DNA of 64,000 bases from Pseudomonadota bacterium. Its GTDB lineage: Bacteria > Pseudomonadota > Gammaproteobacteria > Burkholderiales > Burkholderiaceae_C. The notes beneath the pieces are model-generated. The model saw only the letters and a program-made list of their open reading frames with translations, was not told the DNA's origin and searched no databases. Both the position numbers and the translations under genes were made by a program. The DNA is taken from assembly GCA_023390985.1 (NCBI GenBank), contig JAEWBU010000171.1, positions 9,708 to 73,707 of the forward strand, in the 5' to 3' direction. Within the stretch, counting starts at the first letter, position 1. Each line of letters starts with the position of its first letter. Below are positions 5,863-29,965 of this stretch, in pieces.

Positions 5863-6648
5863 GTGTATCGAATGAACGCGCCCCTGCCCTCTTCCCACTT
5901 CACCCAGCAGTGCCTTCGCTGGAAAGCTCGCCGGCACTCCCACCGGCCCGCTGGCGAGCCGTTCGATCCGGGCCGCTACAGCGTCGAGGTGATCGAGGAG
6001 TCGCAGGCGAAGGCCTTCGTCCTGGAGCATCACTACTCCGGCTCGTACCCCGCGGCGCGCCTGCGGGTTGGCATGTTCGAGCACCAGCGCTTTCGGCCTA
6101 GCCAACTGGTGGGAGTGGCGGTGTTCTCGGTGCCGATGACGCAATCGGTGATCCCGAAGTACCTTGGACTGAAGCCCGCGTTCGGAGTCGAACTCGGGCG
6201 CTTCGTGTTGGCGGAGCACCTACCCGGCAACAGCGAGAGCTGGGCACTGGGCCGGGCATTCCGCATCCTGCGCCGCGAGCTCACGGTGAGCGGCGTCGTC
6301 TCGTTCTGCGACCCACTGGCGCGCTTCGACGCCGGCGGCCGCGAGGTCAAGCGATCGCACACCGGCGTGATCTACAAGGCCCACAACGCGCGGTACATGG
6401 GGACCACACTGCCGCGGACCCTCCAGCTGTTGCCCAACGGCCTGTGCGCATCCGACCGCATGCTCTCGAAGATCCGCAATGGCGAGCAGGGGATCGACTA
6501 CGCCATGCGCCAGCTGCGCACGGCTGGCGCGCCGGGACGCTACCTGGGAGAGTCGCCGACCGAGTGGCTGGTCCGGCTGAAGCAGGAACGCTTCTTCCGG
6601 CCGGTGCGGCATCCGGGGAATCACGCCTTCACCTGGTCCTGGGCCTGA
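5863..6648 (+). CDS. Mom-family (GNAT-fold) adenine-modification protein
   Basis: AKAFVLEHHYSGS, LVGVAVFSVP, VELGRFVL...PGNSESWALGRA, VVSFCDP and HTGVIYKAHN match Mom-like proteins. Confidence 0.75.
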   Translation: MYRMNAPLPSSHFTQQCLRWKARRHSHRPAGEPFDPGRYSVEVIEESQAKAFVLEHHYSGSYPAARLRVGMFEHQRFRPSQLVGVAVFSVPMTQSVIPKYLGLKPAFGVELGRFVLAEHLPGNSESWALGRAFRILRRELTVSGVVSFCDPLARFDAGGREVKRSHTGVIYKAHNARYMGTTLPRTLQLLPNGLCASDRMLSKIRNGEQGIDYAMRQLRTAGAPGRYLGESPTEWLVRLKQERFFRPVRHPGNHAFTWSWA

Positions 6649-6659
6649 GCGCGGGCCGA

Positions 6660-6701
6660 GACCCGCAGAGAGTGACAGGCCGGCAGCACGCTCCATAGAA
6701 T
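6660..6701 (+). promoter_or_regulatory. GACCCGCAG-box promoter, copy 1
   Basis: GACCCGCAG-AGA-GTGACA-N18-TAGAAT. Confidence 0.65.
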
Positions 6702-6744
6702 CGCCCCCGTCTGGCCAAAGGCCGGCAGCTGCCTTTACGACAGC

Positions 6745-6795
6745 CATCAACACCCACCCGGGGACCACATCCCCGGTTGCCGGGACGTGGTTCCC
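6745..6795 (+). promoter_or_regulatory. Conserved structured 5' leader, copy 1
   Basis: CATCAAC, then stem CCGGGGA/TCCCCGG with alternative pairing GGGACCAC/GTGGTTCCC, then GGAG RBS. Confidence 0.6.
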
Positions 6796-6817
6796 TCCCT
6801 CCCTGGAGATTCCACGC

Positions 6818-7657
6818 ATGACACCCGAACACCTTCGCTCCCTGATGCGCGAGGTGGCCAGAGATCACCTGGCCAAGAACATCCGCAACTACAGCTACTC
6901 CCGCTACGACGGCCTCGCGCACACGAACGCCCTGGGCGGCACGAGCTACCTTCGCCCGACCGAGGGCAAGGTGGTCACCGTGATCGAGGGGCACACGGTC
7001 GTCAAGACCGCTGCGAGCCAGTTCACGCTCGTGAGCAGCGAGCTGCTGAGTCAGCCGGTGCGGATCGGCGACAAGATCGGCTTGACCTTCTACAACCTGC
7101 GCCGCTTCGATGGCACGAACGCGGACGGCACGGACGATCCAGCCGCCGGTGGTGTGAAGTCCTATTCGCTCACCGGCACGCAGACCTACTTCCCCGTGAA
7201 GTGGGAAGGCCGCGAACTCGGCATCAACAACCGATTCCGCGAGGCCTACACCGAGATCAAGAACCCGTACCTGCAGGACCTGATCCGCCAACTGGAGCAG
7301 ATCCCGGTCAACGGCGGTCTGCGCAAGATCGTGAACGTCCTGGTGGACGCGAACGGACGCAACCTGCGCTTCGTGGACCCGGGTGGCTCCTCGGCCGAGA
7401 AGCCCGCCATTCTCGTGGACGTCGAAACGGCCAAGCACAAGGGCCTGGTCGACATCAGCTACGACCGGGGCGCCGACTGGTATTGCGTGCGCCTGGTGCC
7501 CGCCGACGGCACGCCGCCGCAGGACGTCGAACCGGTGTACGTCGACCAACTGGCCGACGTGCTGATCGACGGCATCGACGACGGCGAATGGCGCAAGGCC
7601 ACGGTCACCATGATCAAGGCGGCGCCGAAGGCGCGAGCGCAGCCCGCACTGATCTAA
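6818..7657 (+). CDS. Conserved plasmid hypothetical protein
   Basis: 279 aa, GGAG RBS, strong GC3 codon bias. Confidence 0.8.
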   Translation: MTPEHLRSLMREVARDHLAKNIRNYSYSRYDGLAHTNALGGTSYLRPTEGKVVTVIEGHTVVKTAASQFTLVSSELLSQPVRIGDKIGLTFYNLRRFDGTNADGTDDPAAGGVKSYSLTGTQTYFPVKWEGRELGINNRFREAYTEIKNPYLQDLIRQLEQIPVNGGLRKIVNVLVDANGRNLRFVDPGGSSAEKPAILVDVETAKHKGLVDISYDRGADWYCVRLVPADGTPPQDVEPVYVDQLADVLIDGIDDGEWRKATVTMIKAAPKARAQPALI

Positions 7658-8383: not shown

Positions 8384-8386
8384 GCT

Positions 8387-9389: not shown

Positions 9390-9731
9390 TTAGGAACTCC
9401 GGCCGGTGCGCGCAGCCCCCGCGGTGCCCGGCGCCGCTCGGTAGGCGTCGTGCTGCGCCTGCAGTTCCGGCCGCGTGCTGCAGGGGAATGGCCAAGTCGG
9501 GTGGGGGACCTTCGCAGGTTGCGCTGCGCCGACTTGTTGCGGCTTCGGCGGACGAGGGGGCAGCGTGGATGCGCTGGGTGCCGGAAAGCAGGAGAGATAA
9601 GCGTCGTGCCAAGCCGCGGCCGCCGAGCTCCCCTGCCCCAGTACATCGTGCCCAGCGCGCACGTCCCAGCCATGAGCGGTCTTCGTGGCCGTCGCGGCGG
9701 GGTGCAGCAGCTGAATCTTCGCCTTGAACAT
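9390..9731 (-). CDS. Hypothetical protein
   Basis: Start overlaps the stop of the upstream gene (TGATG coupling). Confidence 0.5.
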   Translation of the reverse strand: MFKAKIQLLHPAATATKTAHGWDVRAGHDVLGQGSSAAAAWHDAYLSCFPAPSASTLPPRPPKPQQVGAAQPAKVPHPTWPFPCSTRPELQAQHDAYRAAPGTAGAARTGRSS

Positions 9732-10618
9732 CAGAGCAGCGTCCCCTGCGCTGAACCGAGCCCGTCATAGCTCGCTCGCACCGTGCCTTCGCTGAGCGTG
9801 AGGCGGCGGTACTTGTCCAGCTCGCACAGGCAATTCTGGATGTCCATGGCGACCAGCTGACGTTCGTCCCAGATCTCGGTCACGCGCGGCCGCAGCAAGT
9901 CAATGAGCGCGCGCAGCTCGAGCTCGAACTGGACCTGGCTGACGGCCTTGTCCTTGGGCCGCCCGCACAGGCGGTTGATCCCGCGCGCGCTGCCCGGCCC
10001 CACGGGCGCCCAAGTCTCGCGATCAGGCCAGTCTTCCCCTGCTCGCAGGTGCGAGATGTCGGCGACCATCTGGCCAGCCAGGAAGCTGCCGATCCCGTCC
10101 AGAGCGGTGAGGCGGGCCCAGGTAGCGCGCATCGTGGGCTGGTAGATGTCGCCGGCGGCGGCAAGTGCGAGAACCTGCTGCGCGCGGCGCAGCACTGTGG
10201 CGATCTTGGCTTCGCCCGGCGCGCCGGGCACGACGTAGGCCCCCGTAAACACCTTGTGCCCGCCACCAGCGCGCACCTGCAGGCGCCGCTCGGCGTGGAC
10301 CAGGTGCTCCAGTGCAAAGGGCTCGCCCAACGTCACGGCCATGAGCGAGTCGGGCCAGTTGACCATGCGCGCAAGGCAAGCCGCCACCAGCGCGGTGATC
10401 GGGTCAGCGTCAGGCGTGTACCAGCGCTGCAGCAGCGCAACACTCACTCGGTCGTCCATCCTGCGCACGTTGCACCAGCGGTAGTCCCGCAGCAGCGGGT
10501 CGTCGGTCCACGGCTTCGGCTGACCGGCCTCCTTCGCGCGGCGCACGGACTCGCGCTCCCGCATCCAGTGCTCCAGGATGTCCAGCTGCTCGGGATCGAA
10601 GTATGGCGAGGTGCTCAT
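9731..10618 (-). CDS. 5-hmdU DNA kinase helical-domain / aGPT-Pplase1-like protein
   Basis: ERESVRRAKEAGQPKPWTDDPLLRDYRWCNVRRMDDRVS, GIGSFLAGQMVAD, GPGSARGINRL and DIQNCLCELDKY are the family signature. Confidence 0.8.
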   Translation of the reverse strand: MSTSPYFDPEQLDILEHWMRERESVRRAKEAGQPKPWTDDPLLRDYRWCNVRRMDDRVSVALLQRWYTPDADPITALVAACLARMVNWPDSLMAVTLGEPFALEHLVHAERRLQVRAGGGHKVFTGAYVVPGAPGEAKIATVLRRAQQVLALAAAGDIYQPTMRATWARLTALDGIGSFLAGQMVADISHLRAGEDWPDRETWAPVGPGSARGINRLCGRPKDKAVSQVQFELELRALIDLLRPRVTEIWDERQLVAMDIQNCLCELDKYRRLTLSEGTVRASYDGLGSAQGTLL

Positions 10619-10634: not shown

Positions 10635-11900
10635 TCATTCCAGGAATCGCCTGAACCCTGGCATGCGCGAGAACCGCTCTGCCGAGCCGACGCAGTATTC
10701 CCCCATGTGCTCCGTTGCGATCCAAGGGCGGCCGTTGATCTCCGCCGCGTAGGCCGTCGTGCCGTAGCCAGAGAAGAGGTCCGCGACCAACCCATCCTCC
10801 GGGCACAGGTAGCGCACCAGGAAGTCAGCCAACCCGAGAGGCATTGCAGCGCCGTGCACAGGGAGGCATCGCTCACGCGCCTTCTCGCGGGCGCGGCGCA
10901 GATCGCCATCGGCCGCCGACTGGACGAACTGCAGCACATTGCGGGGGATGCGCCCGGGCGTCGGATTCCCGAACGAGCCCTGGCGCAGGCTGTAGGCACC
11001 GTCGTTGCGGCGCGCGTACTTGTCCACTCCGCCCTTCTGGATCAGGCGCAACTGCCGCTCTGTGTGCTCCTGCAGCACGCGGCGGTTGTCCGCGAGGCAC
11101 GCGTGTGGGTCGTTGCAGAAGATGTAGACCGGCTCCCACGCGGCATTCAGCTGCATGCGTTCGACGGAAGCCCAGCGAACCGGCCCAGGCGGCTTCGTGG
11201 GGTTGTGCCAAATGAGCTGGTCCATCACGTGCAGCCCAAGTCGGTCGCACATGGCGATCACCAGGCGCTCACGGTAGGTCGATCTGGCAGGCGAGCCGGG
11301 CTCGAAGATGTCGGCGCCGACGTTCAATGCCAAGGTGCCGCCACGCACGAGATTGCGCGCGATCGGCTCCAACTGTCTGCACAACCAGTCAACGTAGAGC
11401 GAAAGCGGAACATTGCCGTAAGCGCGCGGCTTGGCCAACGGATACGGCGGACTTGTCAGGCAGAGCGTGATGGGCTCGTTGATCTTGCTGAACACGTCCT
11501 CGGCTGCGCCCCAGAGGCACACCCCGAGGTCGGTGGAGTAGGCGACCAGGACCACCTTGGGTTTCTGCGGCGTCAGGGCACGGCGCGCCTTGTCCGTCAG
11601 CTGCCACGCGCCGCGGCGGCCAGGCACCGGCGCAAGCCATCCATGCACCTTCGCCGTCTGCTGGTGCCATCGCACGCGGCGCGCCTCCACGCTGTGCACC
11701 TGTCCGGATCGCCCGATGGGCTGCTTCTGCATGAACTCGTTCAGCGGCTTGCCCGCTTTGCGCGCCACCTCGCGATACAGGCTGTCGTTGGTCAGCGTTC
11801 CATCCGGCGAGCGGTCATAGGCCTTGATGACCTCGCGCAGGCTTTCGGGCAGCGCATCGAGGTCCGGCTCTTCGGCAGTATCGCGGGCAATGGTCGGCAC
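10635..11900 (-). CDS. N4-cytosine/N6-adenine DNA methyltransferase (beta class, SPPY) with N-terminal winged-helix-like segment
   Basis: LCLTSPPYP precedes LVADLFSGYGTT. N-terminal RRVRWHQQT...RRGAWQLT resembles Mrr-N. GTG at 11900 lies just after the upstream stop. Confidence 0.85.
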   Translation of the reverse strand: MPTIARDTAEEPDLDALPESLREVIKAYDRSPDGTLTNDSLYREVARKAGKPLNEFMQKQPIGRSGQVHSVEARRVRWHQQTAKVHGWLAPVPGRRGAWQLTDKARRALTPQKPKVVLVAYSTDLGVCLWGAAEDVFSKINEPITLCLTSPPYPLAKPRAYGNVPLSLYVDWLCRQLEPIARNLVRGGTLALNVGADIFEPGSPARSTYRERLVIAMCDRLGLHVMDQLIWHNPTKPPGPVRWASVERMQLNAAWEPVYIFCNDPHACLADNRRVLQEHTERQLRLIQKGGVDKYARRNDGAYSLRQGSFGNPTPGRIPRNVLQFVQSAADGDLRRAREKARERCLPVHGAAMPLGLADFLVRYLCPEDGLVADLFSGYGTTAYAAEINGRPWIATEHMGEYCVGSAERFSRMPGFRRFLE

Positions 11901-11902: not shown

Positions 11903-12529
11903 TCAGTACCCCGTGCGCCAGTCGCGCCCGATCTGCCACCGGCTCTCCCAGTGGCGCAGATAGCCGGTGGCCACTGCCTGGTTGCCCCAGAGGACGATCA
12001 CGTTCTCGCTGTTGGACTTGGCCGCGGCCGCGCTGTAGTTGAAGCTACCGGTTTGGACGGTTAGCTGGTCGCTCACGATCACCTTGTCATGGTGGGCCGC
12101 GAACGCGTCAACCGTGCGGACCGGAACACCGGCGTTGACGAGGGCATTGAGGGCAGCGCGCGCCCTGCCCCCGCCGCTGTCGCCGGTGTTCTGTCGGTTG
12201 TCTGCGACCACCGCCACATCCACGCCGCGCTTCTTGGCCGCGATCAGCGCGGAAACCACCGGGGCGCTCGTCAGGGCGTAAGCCATCATGCGGATCTGCT
12301 TCTTGCTGGTGCCGATCACCTTCAGCACCAACTTCTCGGCGCCGGCGTCGGGAGAAAACGCATATTCCACGGTGCCGGCGCTGGGGGCACTGCCGGTCGG
12401 CGTCAGGGCGGACACGACGGCGTCGGCGATCTGGTTTCCCACGTTCGGGAACGCGTGCGCGCCGCCCCAGAGCAGCCCCGCCACCACTACCAACAACGGG
12501 CGAAAGCCCTTGCGCAAGAACATCTTCAT
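11903..12529 (-). CDS. Exported phospholipase-D-family nuclease (Nuc-like)
   Basis: Signal peptide ending AHA; single HxK(x4)D motif HDKVIVSD..GSFNYS..NSEN; AFSP motif. Confidence 0.85.
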   Translation of the reverse strand: MKMFLRKGFRPLLVVVAGLLWGGAHAFPNVGNQIADAVVSALTPTGSAPSAGTVEYAFSPDAGAEKLVLKVIGTSKKQIRMMAYALTSAPVVSALIAAKKRGVDVAVVADNRQNTGDSGGGRARAALNALVNAGVPVRTVDAFAAHHDKVIVSDQLTVQTGSFNYSAAAAKSNSENVIVLWGNQAVATGYLRHWESRWQIGRDWRTGY

Positions 12530-13456: not shown

Positions 13457-14866
13457 ATGCCAAACAATCCGCCGACCTCACCCCAGCCGAACGGCGCCAG
13501 CGTGCTGATCGCCGGCGCGCGCGTGTCGCAGGCCCAGCTTCGCGACCGATGGGAGACGCCCGACCTGCAGCAGCTGCTGGTGCAGGCCCGGCAGCAATTC
13601 GGCAACGCCCTATGCTGCTGCCGCCCCGCGCAGCTGAAGCTGCAGATCCGCACGCGCGCGGGGAAGTCGCACCTGGCTGTGTGGCCCGAGCAGGGAGCGC
13701 TGCATGACAGCGAGTGCGCCTTCTTTCGAGACGAGTTGCTCGAGCAGGCTGCCGTCGCTCCGCGCCCTCCCGCCTCGCCGCCGCCCGGCCCTGACACCAC
13801 GGCGCAGCAGCAGCGCATCCGCCTCTTCATGCCGCGCCCAGGCGAGCAAGCACCCGAAGGTGCACAGCTCGTGAGCGTTCGCACCCTCGCCTATCTGCTG
13901 TGGGAAGCCGCCTCCCTATGCCGCTGGCACCCCACCTGGACCAGAGATTGGGGCCGCACCCGCTACCAGCTGCTCAAGGCCGCCGAGGGCTACGAGATCA
14001 ACGGCCGGCCCGGGGAGCGCGTGCTGTTCGTTCCACGCGTGTTCCGCGCCGAAGCGGCGGCAGGCCTGAATCGGGAACACGAAGACTTCGTGCGCGAGAT
14101 GATGACGGCCAACGACGGCCAGCCGCGCATCATGATCGGTCAGGTCCGCAGCTTCGTCCCGGAGCGAGACGGCCAGCCTGGTCGCGTGATGCTGCGCCAC
14201 CTGCGGCACCCCATCGGCCTGCACCGCGCCTGCCACGACTTCATCTCACGCGAGTGCCGCAGTGTCCTCAGCAACACGTCGCTTTCCACTCGACTAGATG
14301 AACGTCGCCCGCAGCCGGGACCTCGCCGGCCGGATGTGGTCGGGATCTTCTCCGTCGAAGCGAATTCGCGCGGCGGCCTGTGGGCTCGCGCCGGCTGGCT
14401 GCTGCCAGTGCATCGCAGCACCTACCTGCCAGCGGCGAACCATGACGCAGTTCTCCTGATCGAAGCCCTGGTCAATGCGCGGCACGCGTTTCAGTACCTC
14501 CTGAGCGAGCGTCAGCCGAGCCAGCGACACGCCAGTGATTGGCTGGTGCGGCACGTGCTCGATCCGCAGGGCAACCCTGTGGCGCGCGCCGCGCTGGAGA
14601 TCCTGGACCCGGGCAGCAGCCCGCAGTTCCTGCAGGCGCGCGCCGCCATCGCGCAGCGCATGGCGCAGCAGGGCATCCCGACCTGGACCTGGGTGCCCAG
14701 CGGACCCTGCGGCGAACGCCAGCTGCCCCCGCTGCCCCCGTCCGACCAGTTGCCGCAGCAGATCGCCCACCAGGCGCTGCAGGCCCTTGAGCAATCGCCC
14801 CATGCCGAGTATCGGTATGGCCCCCTGAGACAGCTTTTCAACGTGGAGAGGAAGACCGCAGCATGA
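13457..14866 (+). CDS. DUF1173-like protein
   Basis: N-terminal CxC...LAVWPEQGALHDSEC pattern; 469 aa. Confidence 0.65.
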   Translation: MPNNPPTSPQPNGASVLIAGARVSQAQLRDRWETPDLQQLLVQARQQFGNALCCCRPAQLKLQIRTRAGKSHLAVWPEQGALHDSECAFFRDELLEQAAVAPRPPASPPPGPDTTAQQQRIRLFMPRPGEQAPEGAQLVSVRTLAYLLWEAASLCRWHPTWTRDWGRTRYQLLKAAEGYEINGRPGERVLFVPRVFRAEAAAGLNREHEDFVREMMTANDGQPRIMIGQVRSFVPERDGQPGRVMLRHLRHPIGLHRACHDFISRECRSVLSNTSLSTRLDERRPQPGPRRPDVVGIFSVEANSRGGLWARAGWLLPVHRSTYLPAANHDAVLLIEALVNARHAFQYLLSERQPSQRHASDWLVRHVLDPQGNPVARAALEILDPGSSPQFLQARAAIAQRMAQQGIPTWTWVPSGPCGERQLPPLPPSDQLPQQIAHQALQALEQSPHAEYRYGPLRQLFNVERKTAA

Positions 14867-15432
14867 ACCAAACCGACAACCGCAAGGCACCCGTTTTTAT
14901 CGGGCCGGACGTGATCGTGGAGGGCACGATTCGCCGCAAGGACGGTGGCGACCCGAACGAGGCCGCGATCATCACCGGCGTCTTCAAGGGCAACATCGAC
15001 TGGCCCGGCATCGTGCACGTGGCCGCAGGCGCCGAGCTCGTCATCGAATCCAAGGTGAGCTGCCGCGAGATCGAGGTGGCCGGCAAGATTTCGGGCAGCG
15101 ACCAGAACGTCATCCTGGAGACCGGCATGCTGCGCATGTGCGACTCCGCCAATGTGGAAGTCGGTCTGCTCAGCCTGGCGCCCGGCGGCCTGGAGCAGGC
15201 GCGCGGCGCCGTGGTCAACGCGAACCTGCGCATGACGCAGGAGCATCCCTACGCCAGCCAGCAGCCGCAGTCGCAGACCAAGCCCGTCCTGGCGGTGGTG
15301 AGCAACGAAGCGCCGGCGGCGAGCAAGGACCAGATCCCCGCATTCCTCACCGCCGGGGCCCAGGCCGCAGGCACGACGCAACAAGGCTCCGGCCAGGCGC
15401 TCTCGCTGGCCACCGGTACCGGCCAGCGCTGA
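14863..15432 (+). CDS. Bactofilin (polymer-forming cytoskeletal) family protein
   Basis: FIGPDVIVEGTI, IITGVFKGNI and EIEVAGKISG beta-helix repeats; ATGA coupling. Confidence 0.7.
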   Translation: MNQTDNRKAPVFIGPDVIVEGTIRRKDGGDPNEAAIITGVFKGNIDWPGIVHVAAGAELVIESKVSCREIEVAGKISGSDQNVILETGMLRMCDSANVEVGLLSLAPGGLEQARGAVVNANLRMTQEHPYASQQPQSQTKPVLAVVSNEAPAASKDQIPAFLTAGAQAAGTTQQGSGQALSLATGTGQR

Positions 15433-15528
15433 TCTCGTCGCGCATCGCGGCCTAAGCGGCCAGGTTGCAGCTCGTTGGGGGCGCGACCTGGCCGCTTCGC
15501 TTTAGTAGCAACAGAAGTGGGGATGCAG

Positions 15529-15569
15529 GACCCGCAAGAGTTGACGCCGAAGCCGCGGTCCGCTGAAAT
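15529..15569 (+). promoter_or_regulatory. GACCCGCAG-box promoter, copy 2
   Basis: GACCCGCAA-GAG-TTGACG-N17-TGAAAT. Confidence 0.65.
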
Positions 15570-15614
15570 GCAGTCTCTTTCGGAGTAATCCGATCGGTCG
15601 CGCCTCAGTGCCGA

Positions 15615-16029: not shown

Positions 16030-16061
16030 AAGCCCACCTCCGAAAGGAGGTGGGCTTTTCT
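16030..16061 (+). terminator. Intrinsic terminator
   Basis: AAGCCCACCTCC-GAAA-GGAGGTGGGCTT followed by TTCT. Confidence 0.8.
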
Positions 16062-16478: not shown

Positions 16479-17008
16479 GCGGCGCCCCCGACCTCGCCTT
16501 CGTCCGCCTGGAAGTCCGGCCGGTGCCCGGCCTCAAGTGCATCGTCATCGCCCCTGTCGGCATGATGCACGCGCTCGCTCACGTGACGACGGCCACGGAT
16601 ACCCCGCAGCCGCTCACCGAGCGCGAACTGGCGATCGCCAATCGGCTGGTGCTGGCCTGGAACATCCACGGCAAGCTCCGCACGACGCTGCGCGAGCTGG
16701 TCGACTGGTGCCGTGAGCACACCTCGCCGCGCGATGCGAGCTCGCCGCACCAACTGCTGGTGAACGCCACTGCCGTCCTCGATGCGGCCGCCGGCGACAG
16801 CCAGCAGCCGGACGAGCCCGACCAAGCCGCGGTGCTGCGGACCCGCTACTCGCAGATCCTGGCCAGAGCGCAGGCCCTTCGCGACTGCAGCTGGCTCGAC
16901 TTCGACCCGGCGGCATCCGCCGAGTTGGCGCAGGCGAAGCAGAACATGCTGGACTTCCTCACCGAGGTCGATCGCGAATCCGCCGCCAGTGCGGCCGTCC
17001 GCGCGTGA
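16475..17008 (+). CDS. Hypothetical protein
   Basis: ATGA and GTGA coupling on both sides. Confidence 0.65.
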   Translation: MSGAPDLAFVRLEVRPVPGLKCIVIAPVGMMHALAHVTTATDTPQPLTERELAIANRLVLAWNIHGKLRTTLRELVDWCREHTSPRDASSPHQLLVNATAVLDAAAGDSQQPDEPDQAAVLRTRYSQILARAQALRDCSWLDFDPAASAELAQAKQNMLDFLTEVDRESAASAAVRA

Positions 17009-18117
17009 GCGTCGGCCACGCAGGGGCAGCGGCGCTGCCGACCATCCGAGTGGGGATGCCACTTCCCGCGGGGCGCCTGCTCGAGTACGGAATCATGAGT
17101 GGGCTCCCGCTGATGTTCTCGGCGAACGCATTCGCCAAATACCGGGAGGGCTGCTTTCGTGGCTTCCGCCTCAACGCCGCCAGTGCCATCCCACCACAAG
17201 TGGACGCGGCACTGGACAGCGCCGGCTTCACCGCCGCCGCACACTACGGGGACTATCGCTTCTCGGTATCTGCATACCTGGACCTGGTCGCCTCTCGTGA
17301 CTGGGCGTTCTGGTCCGCAATGGACTACTGCGTGGAGCCAGCGATCGCCCAGGACGCAGCGATGCGTCGCCTTCGCATCGATGCGACCATCGCACGCTAC
17401 TGGGAGTGCGCCGACAAGGCGGCCGCGCGGAAGCTGAAGCCGCCGCTGCCGGTGATCCAGGGGCTGATGTTCGACGAGTACGCCCGGTGCGCCGAGCAGA
17501 TGGGCATCAGCGAAGCAACAGCGATGGTGGGGATTGGCTCGGTCTGTCGGCGCCACCTCTACGGCCCGGACGGCGTCCTCGCCATCGTGTCCGCGCTGGA
17601 CGAGATCCTTCCGAAGTCATCCAAGCTGCACCTGTTTGGCCTCAAGGGCGCCGGAACCCTAGGCGTGCTAGTGAGCCTGTTCCCGCATCGGATCGGGTCG
17701 ACCGATTCCATGGCGTGGGACCTTGGAGTCCGCCGCAGCATGCCTGTTGGCCGAGACCAGGAGCTGCGTGCCCAGGCGATGATCAACTGGCACCGGCGCG
17801 AGTCCGACCAGCTGCAGGCCTACCGGCCCCGAGAGGGGGCGGTGGCCTTGCCCCCGCACCGGGAGCGGACGGGTGAGGATCTCGCAATGGAAGCAGTTGG
17901 CGCCGCGCTCGGAGAGCTGCTGATGTCCAACGATGCGTCCTACCGTATGTGTCGCAGCTTGCTGCAGCAGGACACGGTGATCGTGCAGTACCTCCTGGCC
18001 ACAGAAGGTGTTCACGCCTTTGCCGAGGAGGACCCCGACGACGATCGAGGCCTCGGCATCGTTTACAGGGTGGTTCGTGACGCCTTGATCGACCACGACT
18101 TGCTGGCAGTTGCTTGA
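17005..18117 (+). CDS. TGT-like / DpdA-family 7-deazaguanine DNA transglycosylase candidate
   Basis: LDSAGF, AMDYCVE, PVIQG, VGIGSVCRR, KLHLFGLKG and STDSMAW follow the TGT/DpdA motif order. Confidence 0.75.
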   Translation: MSVGHAGAAALPTIRVGMPLPAGRLLEYGIMSGLPLMFSANAFAKYREGCFRGFRLNAASAIPPQVDAALDSAGFTAAAHYGDYRFSVSAYLDLVASRDWAFWSAMDYCVEPAIAQDAAMRRLRIDATIARYWECADKAAARKLKPPLPVIQGLMFDEYARCAEQMGISEATAMVGIGSVCRRHLYGPDGVLAIVSALDEILPKSSKLHLFGLKGAGTLGVLVSLFPHRIGSTDSMAWDLGVRRSMPVGRDQELRAQAMINWHRRESDQLQAYRPREGAVALPPHRERTGEDLAMEAVGAALGELLMSNDASYRMCRSLLQQDTVIVQYLLATEGVHAFAEEDPDDDRGLGIVYRVVRDALIDHDLLAVA

Positions 18118-18687: not shown

Positions 18688-19446
18688 TCAGCTGATCGCT
18701 TCGTTCGGTTTGCGTGCCATCACGATGATGGTTCGTCCGAGCAGCATCTTTCTGCTGTTCATCGCGTCCACGATCTCCCGGTTATCCGGCGTGATGGTCT
18801 TGTAACGACGATGCTCGCGATTCGAAGCGAGCCAGCTGAAAAAGCCAATGAAAGGAGCCAGGATCGCCAGCTTGACCACTGCAGAACGCTGGACCTTGTC
18901 GATCTGAAAATCAGTCAATTCGAGGCCCGCTTCCGCGATCGCATGCGCGAGATAGAAATAGGACACCGGCGTGATGTGGCCGCCCGTGGAGAACGTCTCA
19001 GTTCGGCCAATCGGCAAAGGCCCGAACAGATTCCAGAAACCGAACCACAGGAAGCGGAGCCGAGACTGCAGATTCAGAACATTGGGCGTGGAGAAAACAA
19101 CCGCTCCTCCAGGGCGAAGTACGCGGGCAGTTTCTCTGACCAAACGCCGGTAGTTTTCCAGATGCTCGATCACTTCCGTGCAGGTCACAAGATCGAAACT
19201 GTTGTCGACATAAGGCAGGCGGTCTTCGTTCAGGTTGGCTACGTCGACCTTCTGCCCTTGCAGGGCCATGAGCGAATCCGTGTAGTCACACGCCGAGGTC
19301 TTGACGCCTGGCAGCATCCGACGCAGCCTCGCCAGCAGCGCCCCGGTTCCTGAGCCGACATCGAGTACATGGCCTTGCGCCGGCAAGCTGGCCTTATGCA
19401 CCAGCGAAACAACCGCATCGAGAATCTTGTCCGTACTTAGTTCCAT
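18688..19446 (-). CDS. Class I SAM-dependent methyltransferase
   Basis: VLDVGSGTG, LPYVDNSFDLVTCTEVIEHL, RVLRPGG..STPN. Confidence 0.85.
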   Translation of the reverse strand: MELSTDKILDAVVSLVHKASLPAQGHVLDVGSGTGALLARLRRMLPGVKTSACDYTDSLMALQGQKVDVANLNEDRLPYVDNSFDLVTCTEVIEHLENYRRLVRETARVLRPGGAVVFSTPNVLNLQSRLRFLWFGFWNLFGPLPIGRTETFSTGGHITPVSYFYLAHAIAEAGLELTDFQIDKVQRSAVVKLAILAPFIGFFSWLASNREHRRYKTITPDNREIVDAMNSRKMLLGRTIIVMARKPNEAIS

Positions 19447-19642
19447 GCGCGCATTCTCGGGCAGAGCGACAGAGGTCCGATCTCGGGAGTGCAAGCGGGC
19501 ACCCCGAATCGGGAGAAGTTGACCAAATCGTGACGTCGGCCAGGACCATGCCGGCGCACGTGCTCGCAATCTGCGGCAGCGCACAGGAGCGAAAACGGCC
19601 CCGATCGGGAGCCGTTCTCGCTAGGCCTTGGGAAAACAGAGC

Positions 19643-20071: not shown

Positions 20072-20143
20072 TGAGCCGATGCCATCAGCTTAGCAGCGGC
20101 CCTCGATCGCGCAAGCCGTGCGGGCCGGCCGCGGCCGCAGGTG

Positions 20144-20184
20144 GACCCGCAGCGCTGGTGCACCGGGAACTGCGAGCGCAAAAT
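20144..20184 (+). promoter_or_regulatory. GACCCGCAG-box promoter, copy 3
   Basis: GACCCGCAG-CGC-TGGTGC-N17-CAAAAT. Confidence 0.55.
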
Positions 20185-20231
20185 CGACCAGGTAACGCCC
20201 CTTGGCGTCTACGGGTGCGCACGTCGCACCC

Positions 20232-20787: not shown

Positions 20788-20848
20788 CGCTGTGGCCTGC
20801 TTAAGCAACGCAGCCAGCGACGAGCTGCTGGAGCGCGAAGGGTTCGAC

Positions 20849-21859
20849 ATGAACCTGCTGCGCGCCACGGCGACGCCGCCGGCCGACGCGCGGCCGAACT
20901 TGGCAAGCTACTCGCGAATCATCGTCGCCTTCAGCGGCGGCAAGGACGCGACCGCGCTCGTCCTGCGCCTGTTGGATGAAGGCGTGCCGCGCGAGAAGAT
21001 CGAGCTGCACCACCACCTGGTGGACGGCAACGAAGGCTCCACGCTCCTAGACTGGCCGATCACGGAGGGCTACTGCAAAGCCTTCGCGCAGGCTCTCGAT
21101 CTGGACATCACATTCAGTTGGAGGGTCGGAGGCCTGGAGCGGGAAATGTTGCGAGAGAACGCGCCCAGCGCACCAGCGATGGTGCCCGCCGAAGGAGGCG
21201 GCTACATCGCGGTCGGCGGCCGCGGCCCACTCGGCACGCGGCGCAAGTTCCCACAGGTCAGCGCCGACCTGAACGTTAGGTGGTGTAGCGGACGCGGGAA
21301 AATCGACGTCCTCGACGCGTACCTGCGTAACCATCCGAAGTTCATCGGCCAGCGCACGTTGGTGCTCACCGGCGAGCGTGCGGAAGAGAGCGCCGCGCGC
21401 TCGCGCTACGCGACCTTCGAGCCGCACCGGGCCGACACCCGCAACAGCAAGAAGGTGCCGCGCCACATCGATGTATGGCGCGCGGTGCACAGCTGGAGCG
21501 AGTCGCGCGTCTGGGAGATCATGCGCCAATGGCGCATCTGCGCGCACCCAGCCTACTGGCTCGGGTATGGCCGCTGCTCGTGTCGCGGCTGTGTGTTCTC
21601 CACGAAGAACCAGTGGGCGACGATGCGCGTAATTGCGCCCGCGCAGTTCGAGACCATCGCCACCTACGAGCGCGAGTTCAAGGTGACGATCCATCGCAGT
21701 AAATCGGTGACGCAGCTGGCCGACGCCGGCTCGCCGTACACGGCGCTGGACCCGAAGTGGATTGCGGTGGCGAACAGCCGCGAGTACACCCAGCCCATCT
21801 TCATCGACCCGTGGGTCCTGCCTGCTGGCGCATTTGGCGAAGCGGCCGGCCCCACCTGA
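20849..21859 (+). CDS. PAPS-reductase-family (PP-loop) protein
   Basis: IVAFSGGKDA PP-loop, RWCS, GERAEESAARS, HPAY..GYGRCSCRGC. Confidence 0.85.
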   Translation: MNLLRATATPPADARPNLASYSRIIVAFSGGKDATALVLRLLDEGVPREKIELHHHLVDGNEGSTLLDWPITEGYCKAFAQALDLDITFSWRVGGLEREMLRENAPSAPAMVPAEGGGYIAVGGRGPLGTRRKFPQVSADLNVRWCSGRGKIDVLDAYLRNHPKFIGQRTLVLTGERAEESAARSRYATFEPHRADTRNSKKVPRHIDVWRAVHSWSESRVWEIMRQWRICAHPAYWLGYGRCSCRGCVFSTKNQWATMRVIAPAQFETIATYEREFKVTIHRSKSVTQLADAGSPYTALDPKWIAVANSREYTQPIFIDPWVLPAGAFGEAAGPT

Positions 21860-24341: not shown

Positions 24342-26480
24342 TCACACCACCAGGGCCTGCTCCGCGCCCTGTTCCCGCTCGATCAGCCGATACGGCGGGA
24401 GGCCGCGCAGGAGCCTGCGCCCGTAGCCCTTCTCGGTCAGGCGACTGTCGTAGCAGGTGATCGTTGCTGTGTCCGTCTCGTTGCGAATGCCGCGGCCGGT
24501 CCACTGCAGCAGGCGCACGCCGGCTGAAGGAACGACCACCTGGTCGAAGTAGTCGCCACCGGTTTCCTCGACGTACTCGGCCCGTGCCTCGCTCACCGGG
24601 TTGGCCGGGCTGCCGAAGGGCAGCTTCGTGATCCACAGATGCCGGCATAGATCGCCCGGCAGATCCAGACCCTCCCCGAAGGACTGCAGGCCCATGATGA
24701 CGCTTGCCTGGCCCGCCTGCACTCGGCGCCGATGCTCGGCCAGCAGCATGCTCCTAGGCATGGTGCCCTGCACCAGCACCCGCTCGCGCAGATGCTCCGG
24801 CAGCGCCTCGAACGCCTGCGTCATGTGCCGGCGGGATGTGAAAAGCGCCAGACCGCCAGCCTGAGCACCAGCGATGTCATCGGCAAGCAGCTGCGCGACT
24901 TCGGTGTTGTACGCATCCAGGTGCCGCGGAGCGCTCGCCGTCTTGCGCACCACCAACTGCCCCTGCTTGACGTAGTCGAACGGAGATTGCACCGTCGATG
25001 TACGCACCGCCGGATCGCCATCCAAGCCGGCCTCGGCCTTGAAGAACCCGAACGAGCCGCACGTGGCCAGGGTCGCCGAAGTCAGGACCGCGCCGCGCAC
25101 CCTGCCCCACAGGTTCAAGCGCAGCAGATCGCCAGGGAGGATTGGGGAGGCGTGCAGGCGGACCGCGACCATGCGGCCCGCCCGAGCATCGACCGAGACC
25201 CACTTCGCCGTCGTGCGCGCGTCCTCGCCATCGGCCAACAACATGTCCGCGGCCCGCTTCACGCGGGATAGCCGACCGGCTAAGGCGCCGAGGTCAGCGT
25301 ACATCGAGGCCAGCGCAGGCGGTGCCGTGCCCCCTGCTTCCTGGATCGCCCCACGCGCTGCCTGCCCGAGAGTCGTGCAGACCTCCAGCAGTTCGGTTGC
25401 TCGCGCCTGGGCCATCCTCAGCGGCTCGCGCAGCAGCGCGTCGATCTCCTGCTCCTTGAGCCGGCGCACGCCGTCTTTCTCGCGCATGCCAGAGGCAAGG
25501 TTGTCGAAGGTGATCTGGCCAGAGTCTTGCAGCGCCGCACGAAGCTCGCGGACGATCTTGTCCACTGGCCTGTCGACTTTCTGGGCCAACTGCCGCATAC
25601 CGGTCACGACGGCCAGCGTGGCGCGGTCCAACCACCGAAGGCGCGACAAGTCCAGCTCGCATGCGAACTGCTCGGCCGCGGTCTGGGGAAGAGCGTGAGC
25701 CTCATCCAGCACCAGCAGGCAGTTGTCCAACTCCGGCAGCAATCGCGTTCCTATGCTGGAAAGGAGCAGGTCGTGGTTCACCACGAGCACGTCGGCCTCT
25801 GCGAGTCGTCGGCGCGCGGCGAAGTACGGGCAGGCCTGGTACTGCGGGCAGGACTTGCCGGTGCACGTGTGGCGGTCAGCTGCAACGTTGTCCCACAGGT
25901 TGGGCGGCGCCGGCTCCACCAGGCTGTCCCGGTCACCATCCCATGACCGCTGCTCCAAGGCCTGGGCCGCGGAACGGTAGAACACCACGGCGGCCTCGGG
26001 CTGGGCTGCAGACACTGGCGCCGCGTCTTCTCCGGTATCGACGGACTCGTCCCCACCGCCCACTCTGGACGCAAGCCGGGTCAGGCAGATGTATCGCCCC
26101 CGCCCCTTTGCCAACGCGAACTTGGGCGCGGGATCCATCGTGGCGGCAAGCATTGGGAGGTCCTTGCCAATGAGCTGCTCTTGAAGGGCGACGGAACTGG
26201 TCGAGACCATCAGCCGCGTCTTCCTGGCCATGGCGATTGCCGCGCCGACCAGGAGGTAGGCCGCCGACTTGCCGACGCCGGTGCCGGCTTGCACCACGGC
26301 GATGCTGCGTAAAGGGGCTTCGCCGGTCTCGCCCAGCTGCGCTGTGGCCAGCGCACGCGCGACCTCCTGGGCCATCGCGCGCTGGCCTGAGCGCTCACGA
26401 AAAGACGGCAGGTTGCCCACGGCACGCTCGTATGCGGCCATGCCAACGTCGATCAGTGGTTGCGGGGCAGTGCTGGTCAC
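24342..26480 (-). CDS. dinG: DinG-family Fe-S DNA helicase
   Basis: Q motif ERSGQ, AGTGVGKS, KGRGRYIC, CTGKSCPQYQACP, DEAH, SFGEGLDLPG, QWTGRGIR. Confidence 0.9.
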   Translation of the reverse strand: MTSTAPQPLIDVGMAAYERAVGNLPSFRERSGQRAMAQEVARALATAQLGETGEAPLRSIAVVQAGTGVGKSAAYLLVGAAIAMARKTRLMVSTSSVALQEQLIGKDLPMLAATMDPAPKFALAKGRGRYICLTRLASRVGGGDESVDTGEDAAPVSAAQPEAAVVFYRSAAQALEQRSWDGDRDSLVEPAPPNLWDNVAADRHTCTGKSCPQYQACPYFAARRRLAEADVLVVNHDLLLSSIGTRLLPELDNCLLVLDEAHALPQTAAEQFACELDLSRLRWLDRATLAVVTGMRQLAQKVDRPVDKIVRELRAALQDSGQITFDNLASGMREKDGVRRLKEQEIDALLREPLRMAQARATELLEVCTTLGQAARGAIQEAGGTAPPALASMYADLGALAGRLSRVKRAADMLLADGEDARTTAKWVSVDARAGRMVAVRLHASPILPGDLLRLNLWGRVRGAVLTSATLATCGSFGFFKAEAGLDGDPAVRTSTVQSPFDYVKQGQLVVRKTASAPRHLDAYNTEVAQLLADDIAGAQAGGLALFTSRRHMTQAFEALPEHLRERVLVQGTMPRSMLLAEHRRRVQAGQASVIMGLQSFGEGLDLPGDLCRHLWITKLPFGSPANPVSEARAEYVEETGGDYFDQVVVPSAGVRLLQWTGRGIRNETDTATITCYDSRLTEKGYGRRLLRGLPPYRLIEREQGAEQALVV

Positions 26481-26529
26481 GCAACCAGAGTCGCATGCGT
26501 CCGAAGAAGTTCAAGCGCTGGAGGTTCGA

Positions 26530-26570
26530 GACCCGCAGGAGTGGCGGCGCGCGGCTGTCACCGTGAAAAT
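26530..26570 (+). promoter_or_regulatory. GACCCGCAG-box promoter, copy 4
   Basis: GACCCGCAG-GAG-TGGCGG-N17-GAAAAT. Confidence 0.55.
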
Positions 26571-26765
26571 CGAACCGCATTCCTTCTTGGAGCGTGCTGG
26601 GACCCCCCAGCCATCACCAGGCCCGTCATCAAGGGCCAGAGGACGCGCCGTCCAACGGACAGCACGCGCCTCTCCTTCCAAACTTGCGCACCGCCCGCCT
26701 CCTCGCGTGAGGCGCGGCGCAGCGCCCTCTTCCGCCCGATCTCGGGCAACAAACCGGAGAAACTC

Positions 26766-27413: not shown

Positions 27414-27448
27414 AAGGCCTCAACCGGTTCCGGTTGGGGCCTTTTTTT
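27414..27448 (+). terminator. Intrinsic terminator
   Basis: AAGGCCTCAACCGG-tt-CCGGTTGGGGCCTT followed by a T run. Confidence 0.8.
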
Positions 27449-27463
27449 GTGTCGAGGAAGCCA

Positions 27464-27504
27464 GACCCGCAGGAGGTGCGCCGCCCGCGCAGAGCGGCTA
27501 GATT
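27464..27504 (+). promoter_or_regulatory. GACCCGCAG-box promoter, copy 5
   Basis: GACCCGCAG-GAG-GTGCGC-N17-TAGATT. Confidence 0.6.
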
Positions 27505-27548
27505 CCTCGCCGTACGCCTTCGCGCGACAACGCCGGCCACGCGCCGGA

Positions 27549-27603: not shown

Positions 27604-27620
27604 TCTTTCGACGAGGAACC

Positions 27621-28085
27621 ATGAACCACAACCCCGCAAGCGCCGACTCGGCCGATGACGATGCGGTAATCGCACGCGCCCTATCCATCTTGGAGGCGCG
27701 GATGCGCAGGGCCAACTTGAGCGCGCCCAATGCGGCAAAGGACTACTGCCGCCTCCAGCTGGGCGGACTGGACCACGAAGTGTTCGGCGTCATCTTTCTC
27801 GACGCGCAGAACCGGCTGATCGAGTTCCGGCGCATGTTCGCCGGCACGCTCACGCAAACGAGCGTGTACCCGCGCGAGATCGTGAAGGCCGCGCTGAAAG
27901 TCAATGCCGCCACGGTCGTCCTGACGCACAACCACCCGAGCGGCACCGTGATGCCCTCGCGCGCCGACCAGGCGCTCACGCAGACGTTGCGATCGGCGCT
28001 TGCGCTGGTGGACGTGAGGGTGATGGACCACATCGTGGTCTCCGCATCCGATACCTACTCGTTCGCCGAACGGGGGCTGCTCTGA
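27621..28085 (+). CDS. radC: RadC-family JAB domain protein
   Basis: HEVFGVIFLD, GTLTQTSVYPRE, HNHPSG..PSRAD, DHIVV. Confidence 0.92.
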   Translation: MNHNPASADSADDDAVIARALSILEARMRRANLSAPNAAKDYCRLQLGGLDHEVFGVIFLDAQNRLIEFRRMFAGTLTQTSVYPREIVKAALKVNAATVVLTHNHPSGTVMPSRADQALTQTLRSALALVDVRVMDHIVVSASDTYSFAERGLL

Positions 28086-28135
28086 TGGCCCCCCTGACCG
28101 CGACTACGACACCGCCGGCCGCGCGCCTGCAGTTA

Positions 28136-28187
28136 CCCAACCCGTTCGGGGAGCCTCACGCTCCCCGTTGGGATACGTGCGATTCCC
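28136..28187 (+). promoter_or_regulatory. Conserved structured 5' leader, copy 5
   Basis: CGGGGAGC/GCTCCCCG stem; loop CACG pairs with downstream CGTG..TTCCC. Confidence 0.55.
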
Positions 28188-28210
28188 TGTCCAACCAACA
28201 AGGAACGCAA

Positions 28211-29965
28211 ATGCACCAGATCTCCATGGTCTCGGCACCCGTACCCGCCGCGCCCATGCTGAGCGATCTGTTCTCCAACGAAGATGCGAAGAGCATCGAG
28301 CAGCAGCTGGTGGAACTCTCACCGGTCGATCGCGCGATGCGATCCATCGAGCGAGTACTGAAAGATGGATTGACTGCGGTCGTTGCCTTCTCTTCGGGCA
28401 AGGACTCCAGCGTGACGGCAAACCTCACGCTGAATGCAGCCATCAACGTCATCCGCGAAGGCTTCACCTGTCCCCCGGTGGTCATAAGCCACTCGGACAC
28501 GATGGTCGAGAGCCCCGTGGTCAGAGCACTCGCAGACGGCGAGCTCGCGAAGATGAAGGCCTTTGCCGACAGGCACGGCATTCCAATCGAAGTGCGCGTC
28601 GGGCGTCCGTCGCTCAGCGCGTGCTTCGCCACTCGCATCATCGGCGCACGCGCGCTGCCGCCCTTCCCTCAACTTGGGGTCAGGGACTGCTCCACTTCGT
28701 GGAAGGCCCTGGTCAACCAACGAACCATCCGCAAGGTGACCGCGCGCGATGCCAAGGTGGTCACCCTGATCGGCACGCGCCGCGATGAATCACAGGCACG
28801 GGCGGTCAACACCGCAGCGCGCGGTGAAACAGCAGACGAGCCGTGGGCCAACTCGGACGGAGACCTGATGCTCAGCCCGATCCTTCATTGGTCGAGCGAC
28901 GAAATCTGGACGTACATCGGCGAAGCCTCGGCCGGCCTGCACCTGTCCTACTCGGACTTCGCGGAGGTCATGGACTTCTACCGCGACGCTGGCGCGAGTT
29001 CTTGTGTGGTGGTTGCGGACATGAAGTCCGCGGCGACGAACAAGGCATGCGGAGCCCGCGGAGGTTGCTGGACGTGCACTGCCGTCCAAAACGACCGTTC
29101 GGTGGAGAACATGCTGGAGCAGAACCCTGGCAAGTACCCCTATCTGGTTCCACTGCTGAGGCTCAGAGACTACCTGGCGGGAAGCCAGTGGGACTGGTCT
29201 CTGCGAAACTTCATCGGCAGGACCATCTCACCCGAGGGGCGCATCAAGGTGCAGGCGGATCAATACTCGCCCAAGATGGTTGAGGACCTGCTGTACTACA
29301 TCCTGGCTGCCCAGGACGAAGCCAATCGCCTCGGAGCGCCGGCGCCAGTGCGCGCGGTGGGACTGCGCGAGCTCATAGCCATCGACTTCTGGTGGTCTGC
29401 GCGCGCCATTCACCCGCCCTTCCACGCGTTGGCGATCTACTTCGACCACTGCGCCGGCAACGTGCGCTTCGCGCCGAAGATCGAGCGGCCATGCCGGCCG
29501 AGTCCAACGCCCGTGATCGGAGAGATCTACGTAGGCAAGGACTGGGACGACGACACCAGTGCTCTCTACCCAAACGGTCTGCGTTACGTGGAGTGGGAGT
29601 TGCACAGCGACAGCTGCGGGCCCGGCCTACGCTCGAACAAGGCTGGCAAGGTATTCCTCGACCTGGAGGAAGCGCCGGAGCTGGATGTGGACGAACAATC
29701 TGCAGCGGACTTCCTGGAGTTCATCGCTCCGGAGAAGATCGAGCAGTACCACCGCAAGGACTGCCGCGATTGGACGCTAGGCGCCCTGATCTACCTGCAG
29801 TACGGCACGGTGAGCATCGGCACCGGCCAGAGCAGCATGGTGGATTCCATCATGCGGCGTAGCCAGTGGCTGCAGCATCATGGCTTGCACGGCCATCAAA
29901 CTGCCGAGGCTCTGCGGCCCAGGTGCTGTGACCTGGCCGAGCAGCAAGCAGAGTTGTTCACCTGA
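28211..29965 (+). CDS. Large PAPS-reductase/DndC-like protein
   Basis: VAFSSGKDSS, SDTMVESP, RDCS, IGTRRDESQAR, ARGGCWTCT; AAGGA RBS before ATG 28211. Confidence 0.8.
   Translation: MHQISMVSAPVPAAPMLSDLFSNEDAKSIEQQLVELSPVDRAMRSIERVLKDGLTAVVAFSSGKDSSVTANLTLNAAINVIREGFTCPPVVISHSDTMVESPVVRALADGELAKMKAFADRHGIPIEVRVGRPSLSACFATRIIGARALPPFPQLGVRDCSTSWKALVNQRTIRKVTARDAKVVTLIGTRRDESQARAVNTAARGETADEPWANSDGDLMLSPILHWSSDEIWTYIGEASAGLHLSYSDFAEVMDFYRDAGASSCVVVADMKSAATNKACGARGGCWTCTAVQNDRSVENMLEQNPGKYPYLVPLLRLRDYLAGSQWDWSLRNFIGRTISPEGRIKVQADQYSPKMVEDLLYYILAAQDEANRLGAPAPVRAVGLRELIAIDFWWSARAIHPPFHALAIYFDHCAGNVRFAPKIERPCRPSPTPVIGEIYVGKDWDDDTSALYPNGLRYVEWELHSDSCGPGLRSNKAGKVFLDLEEAPELDVDEQSAADFLEFIAPEKIEQYHRKDCRDWTLGALIYLQYGTVSIGTGQSSMVDSIMRRSQWLQHHGLHGHQTAEALRPRCCDLAEQQAELFT

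Follow-up and report, generated by a model that had tools for sequence, protein, structure and literature searches.

Large conjugative elements are known to carry orphan methyltransferases, which lack a cognate endonuclease and for which replication-coupled protection has been proposed (M.EcoGIX/M.BceJIII and the IncC dcm; PMC7736820, PMC11602122, PMC11541004). In the available accounts, M.EcoGIX blocks restriction, working in the recipient together with PolI, a precedent for replication-coupled plasmid methylation (PMC7736820), and the IncC dcm protects against EcoRII (PMC11602122). Orphan methylases were the only DNA-modifying anti-restriction genes described in the literature that we found for plasmids; the main text of a further orphan-methylase precedent contains neither "PAPS" nor "Mom" (PMC11541004). 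Here we analyze a 64,000-nucleotide stretch (hereafter the window) that runs from 9708 to 73707 on contig C224 (97.4 kb, 66% guanine plus cytosine (GC)) in a Burkholderiales-type assembly (429 contigs, 85% complete), an affiliation drawn from the top matches of TrfA and other genes. An initial annotation had noted six phage-style DNA modification genes at positions 5863..29965 of the window and proposed that they form a multi-base anti-restriction shield for a plasmid, part of it under one promoter motif. We favor the reading that these genes encode independent, replication-coupled anti-restriction modifiers, to which we assign a probability of about 0.55.

Phages supply the other close precedents. 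Mom, whose active-site residues are described in PMC13219725, is a single-enzyme system, and in E. coli the DpdA of phage 9g suffices by itself to insert dPreQ0 into plasmid DNA (PMC6884629). For thymidine hypermodification, the available text of PMC8989533 describes the kinase as a separate P-loop protein, reports a Cys-Glu pair as catalytic for group transfer in clade-2 aGPT-Pplases, and shows activity for that clade only. Mom and PAPS reductases have been proposed as anti-defense genes in phage operons (PMC13551039).

Six candidate modification genes and their families

All six open reading frames (ORFs) are real: each is present and uninterrupted within the 5863..29965 span, and the catalytic motifs are kept. 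Pfam and PHROG profiles support the proposed family for five of them, whereas the label "5hmdU-kinase-like" for the sixth did not survive. They lie among 27 called genes (the gene caller missed a few in the span, e.g., FinO), on both strands (four + and two -), divided among no fewer than four units, and they are not one pathway. The genes and their immediate partners are as follows.

5872..6648 (ORF opens at 5863), + strand: predicted Mom-family GNAT-fold DNA adenine-acylating enzyme (PF25680, 83.7 bits, cut-off 27.1)
9731..10618, - strand: stand-alone aGPT-Pplase clade-1 (Pfam HMUDK_hel) protein of HhH-glycosylase fold (PF18723, 139.1, cut-off 25)
10635..11900, - strand: orphan beta-class N4-cytosine methyltransferase (M.PvuII-like) with SPPY motif and N-terminal Mrr_N-like domain (N6_N4_Mtase, 69, cut-off 26.7)
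11903..12529, - strand: PLD-family nuclease of Nuc/NucT type that opens the methylase operon (Pfam, hidden Markov model)
17005..18117, + strand: guanine transglycosylase of DpdA type, a singleton that has an additional helical domain at its C-terminus (PF23859, 50.8, cut-off 27)
20792..21859, + strand: PAPS1, a PP-loop (SGGKD) PAPS-reductase/SspD/BrxP-like enzyme with CxCxxC (PAPS_reduct 21.8, just under 22.5; PHROG424 E=6e-28)
27702..28085, + strand: RadC/JAB protein whose stop abuts the PAPS2 ORF (start uncertain) (Pfam, NCBIfam)
28085..29965, + strand: PAPS2, a DndC-like PP-loop enzyme (SSGKDS) (PAPS_reduct 39.8; TIGR03183 145.9, under the cut-off of 290.4)

As the initial annotation had stated, no cognate restriction module was recognized, here among 29 proteins compared with PADLOC and NCBIfam. 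A Type II restriction-modification system was rejected: the same comparison revealed no cognate endonuclease beside the methylase, whose neighbor is a signal-bearing PLD protein. That neighbor was also rejected as a restriction partner in its own right, given a DrmC score of 40 against a cut-off of 133 and a hydrophobic, signal-peptide-like N-terminus. For a bacterial dpd island, NF041059 scored 16.6 against 200, with only a weak PLD/DpdK match among the Dpd models. Both this island and a Dnd system were rejected on scores under cut-off and no partner genes in the span, and a search of the genome contigs for related loci returned one irrelevant locus.

The methylase matches M.PvuII (1boo) at E=4.9e-38 over residues 120-410, and its SPPY catalytic motif precedes the FxGxG S-adenosylmethionine (SAM) motif. 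Its target is likely N4-cytosine because it is M.PvuII-like, and it would use SAM for this methylation. Downstream of the operon lies a FinO/ProQ-family protein with two ProQ stretches (PF04352; 8387..9337, -). Mom shares PF25680 with its phage Mu counterpart and keeps six of the seven active-site residues compared (H58, Y59, R111, S124, D149, Y159) in an alignment to Mu Mom 8bv8 that is weak overall (E=0.49); it belongs to a plasmid-borne clade found on 90 records. It would use aminoacyl-tRNA to modify adenine. Immediately to its left, an R2K-clade ATP-grasp protein (3701-4702, -) is a possible peptide ligase.

DpdA is the last gene of the 16128-16475-17005 operon. The top fold match of its model is the DNA preQ0 insertase DpdA (7ui4, E=5e-6), and the family-invariant residues D54, D217, Q135-G136 and H192 are kept; D54, D90 and D217 presumably correspond to the TGT catalytic residues. 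The host has a queD-queE-queC operon on another contig (C178), plus tgt, so DpdA could obtain preQ0, for which it would exchange guanine. In its PF23859/TGT fold, conserved Asp, want of preQ0 genes of its own and reliance on host queDEC it resembles the singleton phage enzymes of 9g, Orion and 7-11. Unlike them, it sits on a conjugative element, is less than 33% identical to any phage copy, has the extra helical domain, and has many homologues with a motif in the linker that resembles a beta-clamp-binding tag (see below). Beside DpdA lies a class I SAM methyltransferase (18688..19584, -) with low GC at third codon positions (0.68), a hydrophobic C-terminal stretch and a lipoprotein gene next to it; it is probably not a DNA methylase and looks like a separate insertion.

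The kinase reading of the 9731..10618 gene was rejected: the protein has no Walker A motif, no match to PF18748 and an all-helical HhH domain alone, with no P-loop kinase domain found. A genome-wide PF18748 search was likewise negative, although the profile matched in no control genome either, so absence is not shown thereby. Hypermodification of T or 5-hydroxymethyluracil (hmU) by the known route, as the initial annotation implied, is unlikely. No kinase, amino-acid transferase or dUMP hydroxymethylase was found with 13 phage-locus queries in this 85% complete genome (TET/JBP were not searched genome-wide), and the only thyA detected among hydroxymethylase candidates is the folA-linked one. 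The thyA region was assembled twice with small differences (G000 C124, C376), a sign of strain mixture.

The HhH protein shares with the thymidine pathway of phages M6, ViI and phiW-14 an HhH-fold aGPT-Pplase with a Cys-Glu pair (PMC8989533); it differs in being clade 1, in having no kinase domain or kinase, transferase or hydroxymethylase partners that we could find, and in bearing a C-terminal clamp-like tag. Cys265-Glu266 is invariant in 102 aligned homologues. Distant phage homologues (30-49% identity) adjoin kinases, amino acid:DNA transferases or thymidylate-synthase-like genes. The close clade (52-66% identity; L043-L049 and L051, mostly short contigs) showed no such hmU partners, and several of its members (L044, L045, L046, L049) adjoin ASCH-like, DUF4326, DUF5131 and reverse-transcriptase genes. 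Another distant homologue lies in a MazG/OLD-UvrD defense-like locus (L042). The nearest folds of the predicted model are base-excision glycosylases (Z 7.5-9.1), and the PaMx11 transferase 8z2m has Z 7.8, so these modeled scores do not separate the two activities. Foldseek returned nothing under E 0.001 for this model, PDB sequence searches with DpdA and the HhH protein gave no matches, and no PADLOC model fits the latter. The Cys-Glu enzyme would act alone. One contig in metagenome run X5 has a one-base insertion and a one-base deletion in this gene (10198, 10531), either the relative's local frameshift or an alignment artefact.

A phage PAPS reductase reportedly evades Dnd (Piel 2022, as cited in PMC13551039). 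PAPS2 matches DndC (E=1.7e-42) far better than CysH (E=0.002) and has conserved cysteines C160, C265, C280, C286 and C289 (101 representatives; numbered from the ATG at 28211). Backbone phosphorothioation, which had been raised as a possibility, is not borne out, with DndC scores of 145.9 and 32.7 against 290.4 and no DndD/DndE partners in the span. PAPS1 and PAPS2 are probably two PP-loop Fe-S enzymes that use ATP activation to transfer sulfur to a DNA target. With DndC/SspD/BrxP enzymes and with phage PAPS reductases proposed to counter phosphorothioation (PMC10853773, PMC13551039, as far as these sources describe them) they share the PP-loop and cysteine cluster and Mom-like neighbors in mobile anti-defense operons. 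They differ from DndC/SspD/BrxP in falling below the DndC cut-off, in having no DndD/E or Ssp partners, in forming two paralogous families, and in the terminal clamp-like tags of PAPS2.

Clamp-like tags and recurrence on other plasmids

The beta-clamp-binding consensus is QL[SD]LF. Among the six window proteins, only the HhH protein and PAPS2 end in a motif of this type.

9734..9748, - strand: C-terminal QGTLL of the HhH protein, beta-clamp-binding-like, in a low-confidence flexible tail (predicted local distance difference test below 50 at 293-295)
29945..29959, + strand: C-terminal QAELF of PAPS2, beta-clamp-binding-like

Such motifs were common among homologues, with backgrounds of 0.8-3.4% overall. 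QxxL[LF]-type ends occurred in 92/120 HhH homologues among the matches listed (of 372), compared with 32/4008 genome proteins. For PAPS2, 54 of 101 representatives had the motif at either end (background 2.6-3.4% per end; 49 of the 150 listed were left out for lengths outside 500-700 aa). An N-terminal tag was present in 107/120 methylase homologues among the matches listed (of 1359). Among DpdA homologues, 45/111 had it in the linker after the barrel against a background of 2%, once 9/120 had been left out for want of the anchor motif. Because a QxxL[LF] tag lying outside the catalytic domain is usual in four of the six families, docking of these families on the host beta-clamp is most likely. 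The assembly itself has no dnaN. A complex prediction pairing the last 32 HhH residues with a same-genus DnaN gave 0.31 against a mark of 0.32 without folded controls and counts neither for nor against docking.

We next consider how widely these genes occur. Among 72,556 plasmid records, PAPS2 was found in 2265, the methylase in 2218, PAPS1 in 1467, DpdA in 114, Mom in 90 and the HhH gene in 16, at E-value limits that differed between genes. PAPS1, PAPS2 and the methylase are thus common plasmid backbone genes, and DpdA and Mom are rarer. PAPS2 also occurs in IncC and IncHI1 backbones. In 300 genomes of the family we found DpdA in 5, PAPS1 in 5, the methylase in 5, PAPS2 in 4 and the HhH gene in 3 (distant); these counts may overlap with the plasmid records and were not added.

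The co-occurrence recurs on other conjugative plasmids. On Piscinibacter plasmid NZ_CP136337.1, a PAPS gene of another subfamily, Mom, PAPS2, DpdA and the methylase are co-oriented within 11.3 kb behind PRTRC, and a terminal tag was present in 4/28 coding sequences tested, all four of them modifiers (two PAPS, Mom and methylase). DpdA adjoins Mom on a Sphingomonas plasmid and PAPS2 in genome G104, and two further contigs (G169:C2 and G255:C2) hold DpdA, PAPS1, PAPS2 and the methylase in differing orders. By eye, 19 of 50 listed Mom records were also among 50 listed DpdA records, many of them related sphingomonad plasmids. The association of the six families is recurrent, yet it is a loose, shuffled set. 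Our literature search, with most subscription journals outside its scope, returned no paper on plasmid DpdA/Mom/PAPS clusters or on clamp tags in them.

The element and its promoter motif

The initial annotation called the element a plasmid, and its replicon and transfer genes are indeed of plasmid type, although the contig was not shown to be circular and has higher-GC catabolic genes at its left end. Contig C224 carries TrfA (whose relatives are Burkholderiales plasmids), ParAB and a PRTRC set, plus ribonucleotide reductase, SSB and primase, together with a TraI_2 (MOBH) relaxase, TraD and a VirB-type type IV secretion system (T4SS). BLAST of contig ends detected neither a join nor a circle, so an integrated state may hold. 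An FlhC-like gene adjoins the relaxase; Atlas features (0.91, with FlhC on 33-50% of cluster members) make it a lead.

A recurring box, GACCCGCAG, has 6 matches against 1.59 expected, a number reached by 0/100 shuffles. By itself the 9-mer is so common, at 179 copies genome-wide, that only an extended box with -35/-10 spacing is specific. The extended box consists of RGACCCGCAG, 3 bases, a -35-like hexamer, 17-18 bases and a -10-like hexamer. A matrix built from six seeds located 10 sites on C224, all on the + strand and all intergenic (coding fraction 0.81), with 4 more on contig C186 and 4 on C335. Seven of the 10 C224 sites, including all six seeds, satisfied the combined score-plus-(-10) criterion, for which alone the background was 0 in 754 kb (60 contigs). 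The sites and related features in the span are listed here.

6659..6701, + strand: regulon promoter with the GACCCGCAG box, -35 GTGACA, 18 bp and -10 TAGAAT, after Mom and driving the ORF at 6818-7657
15528..15577, + strand: variant regulon promoter (GACCCGCAAG, -35 TTGACG), missed earlier (score 18.3 by the score-only criterion, without background control)
16030..16057, + strand: strong hairpin resembling an intrinsic terminator, separating the 15528 promoter from the DpdA operon
20143..20192, + strand: regulon promoter upstream of the ORF at 20215 and PAPS1
26529..26578, + strand: regulon promoter upstream of the ORF at 26766
27463..27512, + strand: regulon promoter upstream of RadC and PAPS2

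The claim that part of the set is under the motif therefore stands for PAPS1 and PAPS2, is doubtful for DpdA because of the terminator-like hairpin, and fails for Mom, the methylase and the HhH gene; no site lies upstream of the PLD-methylase-HhH operon. In AcaCD/SetCD-type systems, FlhDC-like activators act at a box just upstream of the -35 element. This element has such a box, along with the FlhC-like gene as a lead, and an FlhDC-type activator likely reads it. A repressor or other activator is possible because no site was found, at the thresholds applied, before the relaxase, type IV coupling protein or T4SS genes.

The IncC DNA-metabolism region (NC_019065.1) likewise holds PAPS2, DUF3150, VWA and primase orthologues together, and IncC has a MOBH relaxase and an FlhC-like gene in common with this element. 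The present element differs from the IncC backbone in its TrfA replicon, PRTRC set, VirB-type T4SS and box sequence and in having no site found before relaxase or T4SS. We consider it somewhat better than an even bet that the span lies in the variable region for DNA metabolism of a large Burkholderiales conjugative element, which is of MOBH type and distantly related to IncC plasmids. C186, with a type IV pilus and an N6-methylase-helicase, and C335, with tyrosine recombinases, a ParM-like gene and Ku, share the motif and are thus probably parts of this element. Ranking contigs by tetranucleotides lacked the specificity to set its limits, and the motif was taken instead. The N6-methylase-helicase (1690 aa; L007:7445-12517), which we take to be DarB-like, lies downstream of a motif site and is a seventh candidate modifier. 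RNA run X18 covered a small share of the stretch only and gives no evidence of expression. Other features of the window include the following.

24342..26480, - strand: DinG helicase (NF008729, 663, cut-off 598)
32961..36519, + strand: ParA, ParB and TrfA replication/partition genes (Pfam)
43256..49869, + strand: regulon promoter, then the PRTRC gene set (Pfam, motif matrix)
57829..61126, + strand: regulon promoter, then ribonucleotide reductase (Pfam, motif matrix)

DinG stands alone in the window, with no cas genes found beside it; a type IV CRISPR locus (L004:31490-38748) lies 11 kb from the DpdA gene on Rhodoferax plasmid NC_007901.1. From the window start to 1916 and upstream on C224, two-partner secretion genes (TPS + POTRA) are split over several frames and are frameshifted or misassembled. 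An SRAP abasic-site protection protein (1977-2756, +) near the left edge might cooperate with base-exchange or glycosylase chemistry. Two bactofilin-like genes occupy 14863-15432 and 40752-41183, and the DUF3799 and Gp3-like genes (36680-39749) form a possible recombination pair. At 53713-64000, AAA (CbbQ-like), SSB, DUF3150 and VWA/CobT genes match the IncC host-defense-evasion gene set.

Competing explanations and biological meaning

In the reading that we favor, the element would have gathered single-gene DNA modifiers, each acting alone on host substrates. Clamp-docked families would modify DNA during copying, as when the complementary strand is made in a new recipient. Any modified bases in the newly made duplex would lower cleavage by restriction enzymes during establishment there, and the enzymes may also mark the host chromosome. 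As with the orphan plasmid methyltransferases, no cognate endonuclease was found and the carrier is a large conjugative element. Relative to them, the window has five families other than methylases beside its M.PvuII-like N4-cytosine enzyme, a coupling suggested by a clamp tag and not by PolI, and genes on both strands. On balance we lean toward placing it with the orphan anti-restriction modification already known from conjugative elements, with the extension to phage-type base-modifying families as what is new.

Several observations weigh against independent, replication-coupled modifiers. The essential R151 of Mu Mom is not kept at the aligned position, where a Leu stands with an Arg two residues on. 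The tag is lost in the window DpdA and degenerate in the window methylase, no clamp motif was found in the window Mom or PAPS1, and no match to the pattern was found in the two enterobacterial PAPS2 copies (IncC and IncHI1) or at the ends of the Sphingomonas trio. Moreover, the pattern was fixed after the sequences had been seen, and the homologues counted are kin rather than independent. Mom occurred in 0/300 family genomes, where the HhH gene never occurred together with DpdA. Gene order varies among plasmids, and on NC_007901.1 three of the genes spread over 150 kb. The arrangement on both strands is unlike the one-strand leading-region pattern described in PMC11541004. The nearest phage DpdAs are mycobacteriophage singletons (398/407 records), and the gene is also on Streptomyces and Mycobacterium plasmids. 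As reported in PMC6884629, singleton phage Orion was without 7-deazaguanine (its host lacks preQ0) and phage 7-11 had only 50 per million.

The strongest alternative, to which we give perhaps one chance in four, is that there is no shield as such and the span is an ordinary insertion hot-spot of common backbone genes and a few phage-derived ones, some idle or drifting, among which only the methylase matters for restriction. The abundance of PAPS1, PAPS2 and the methylase on 1467, 2265 and 2218 plasmid records is what such a hot-spot would show, as are the unconserved order, the tags lost in two window copies, the motif preceding only half of the set, and an HhH gene with no pathway partners found. 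Idle or drifting genes fit poorly with six intact ORFs that keep their catalytic motifs, and with close relatives over the whole stretch in soil metagenomes (30/30 bins in runs X1 and X5). One terminal tag common to unrelated folds, together with the renewed clustering of five families on NZ_CP136337.1, also argues against a hot-spot.

It is unlikely that some of these are instead weapons or repair enzymes. In that case the HhH protein would act at the fork, reading or removing modified bases (hmU or those of phages), and rival phage and plasmid DNA would be damaged or marked by DpdA or the PP-loop enzymes. The glycosylases nearest to the HhH model, the distant homologue in a defense-like locus, and the close homologues beside ASCH, DUF4326, DUF5131 and reverse-transcriptase genes rather than hmU genes are consistent with such a role, and HhH glycosylases act in antiviral defense according to the available text of bioRxiv 2025.10.29.685425. 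The protein nevertheless keeps the Cys-Glu pair that is catalytic in clade 2 (PMC8989533), presumably with an equivalent part in clade 1. In addition, no defense model in PADLOC fits it, and its Z scores do not tell glycosylases from 8z2m.

PP-loop enzymes include tRNA thiolases and CysH, and tRNA transglycosylases make up most of the fold matches to the DpdA model, yet action of the TGT-fold and PP-loop proteins on tRNA or on sulfur/cofactor metabolism rather than DNA is improbable. The top fold match and the Pfam family of that model are both DpdA, PAPS2 lies much nearer to DndC than to CysH, and the clamp-like tags suggest DNA at the fork as the target.

Should Mom, singleton DpdA and DndC-like enzymes be active on plasmids as well, then plasmids use phage-style camouflage, and in IncC and IncHI backbones the role of PAPS-reductase-family genes could be put to the test. 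The clamp-like tag that several families share would offer a concrete timing mechanism. The stand-alone aGPT-Pplase clade-1 protein is a clean handle on a family for which the available text of PMC8989533 shows no activity. More tentatively, and with odds well short of even, proteobacterial conjugative megaplasmids may carry a replisome-docked kit that writes several marks at once (N4-methylcytosine, dPreQ0, acylated dA, a sulfur/adenylate mark and new base chemistry due to the stand-alone aGPT-Pplase clade-1 enzyme) on recipient-copied DNA and possibly on the host chromosome. If this is true, plasmids would share in hypermodified bases that have been regarded as specific to phages, and a function would emerge for PAPS-type genes on more than 2000 plasmids.

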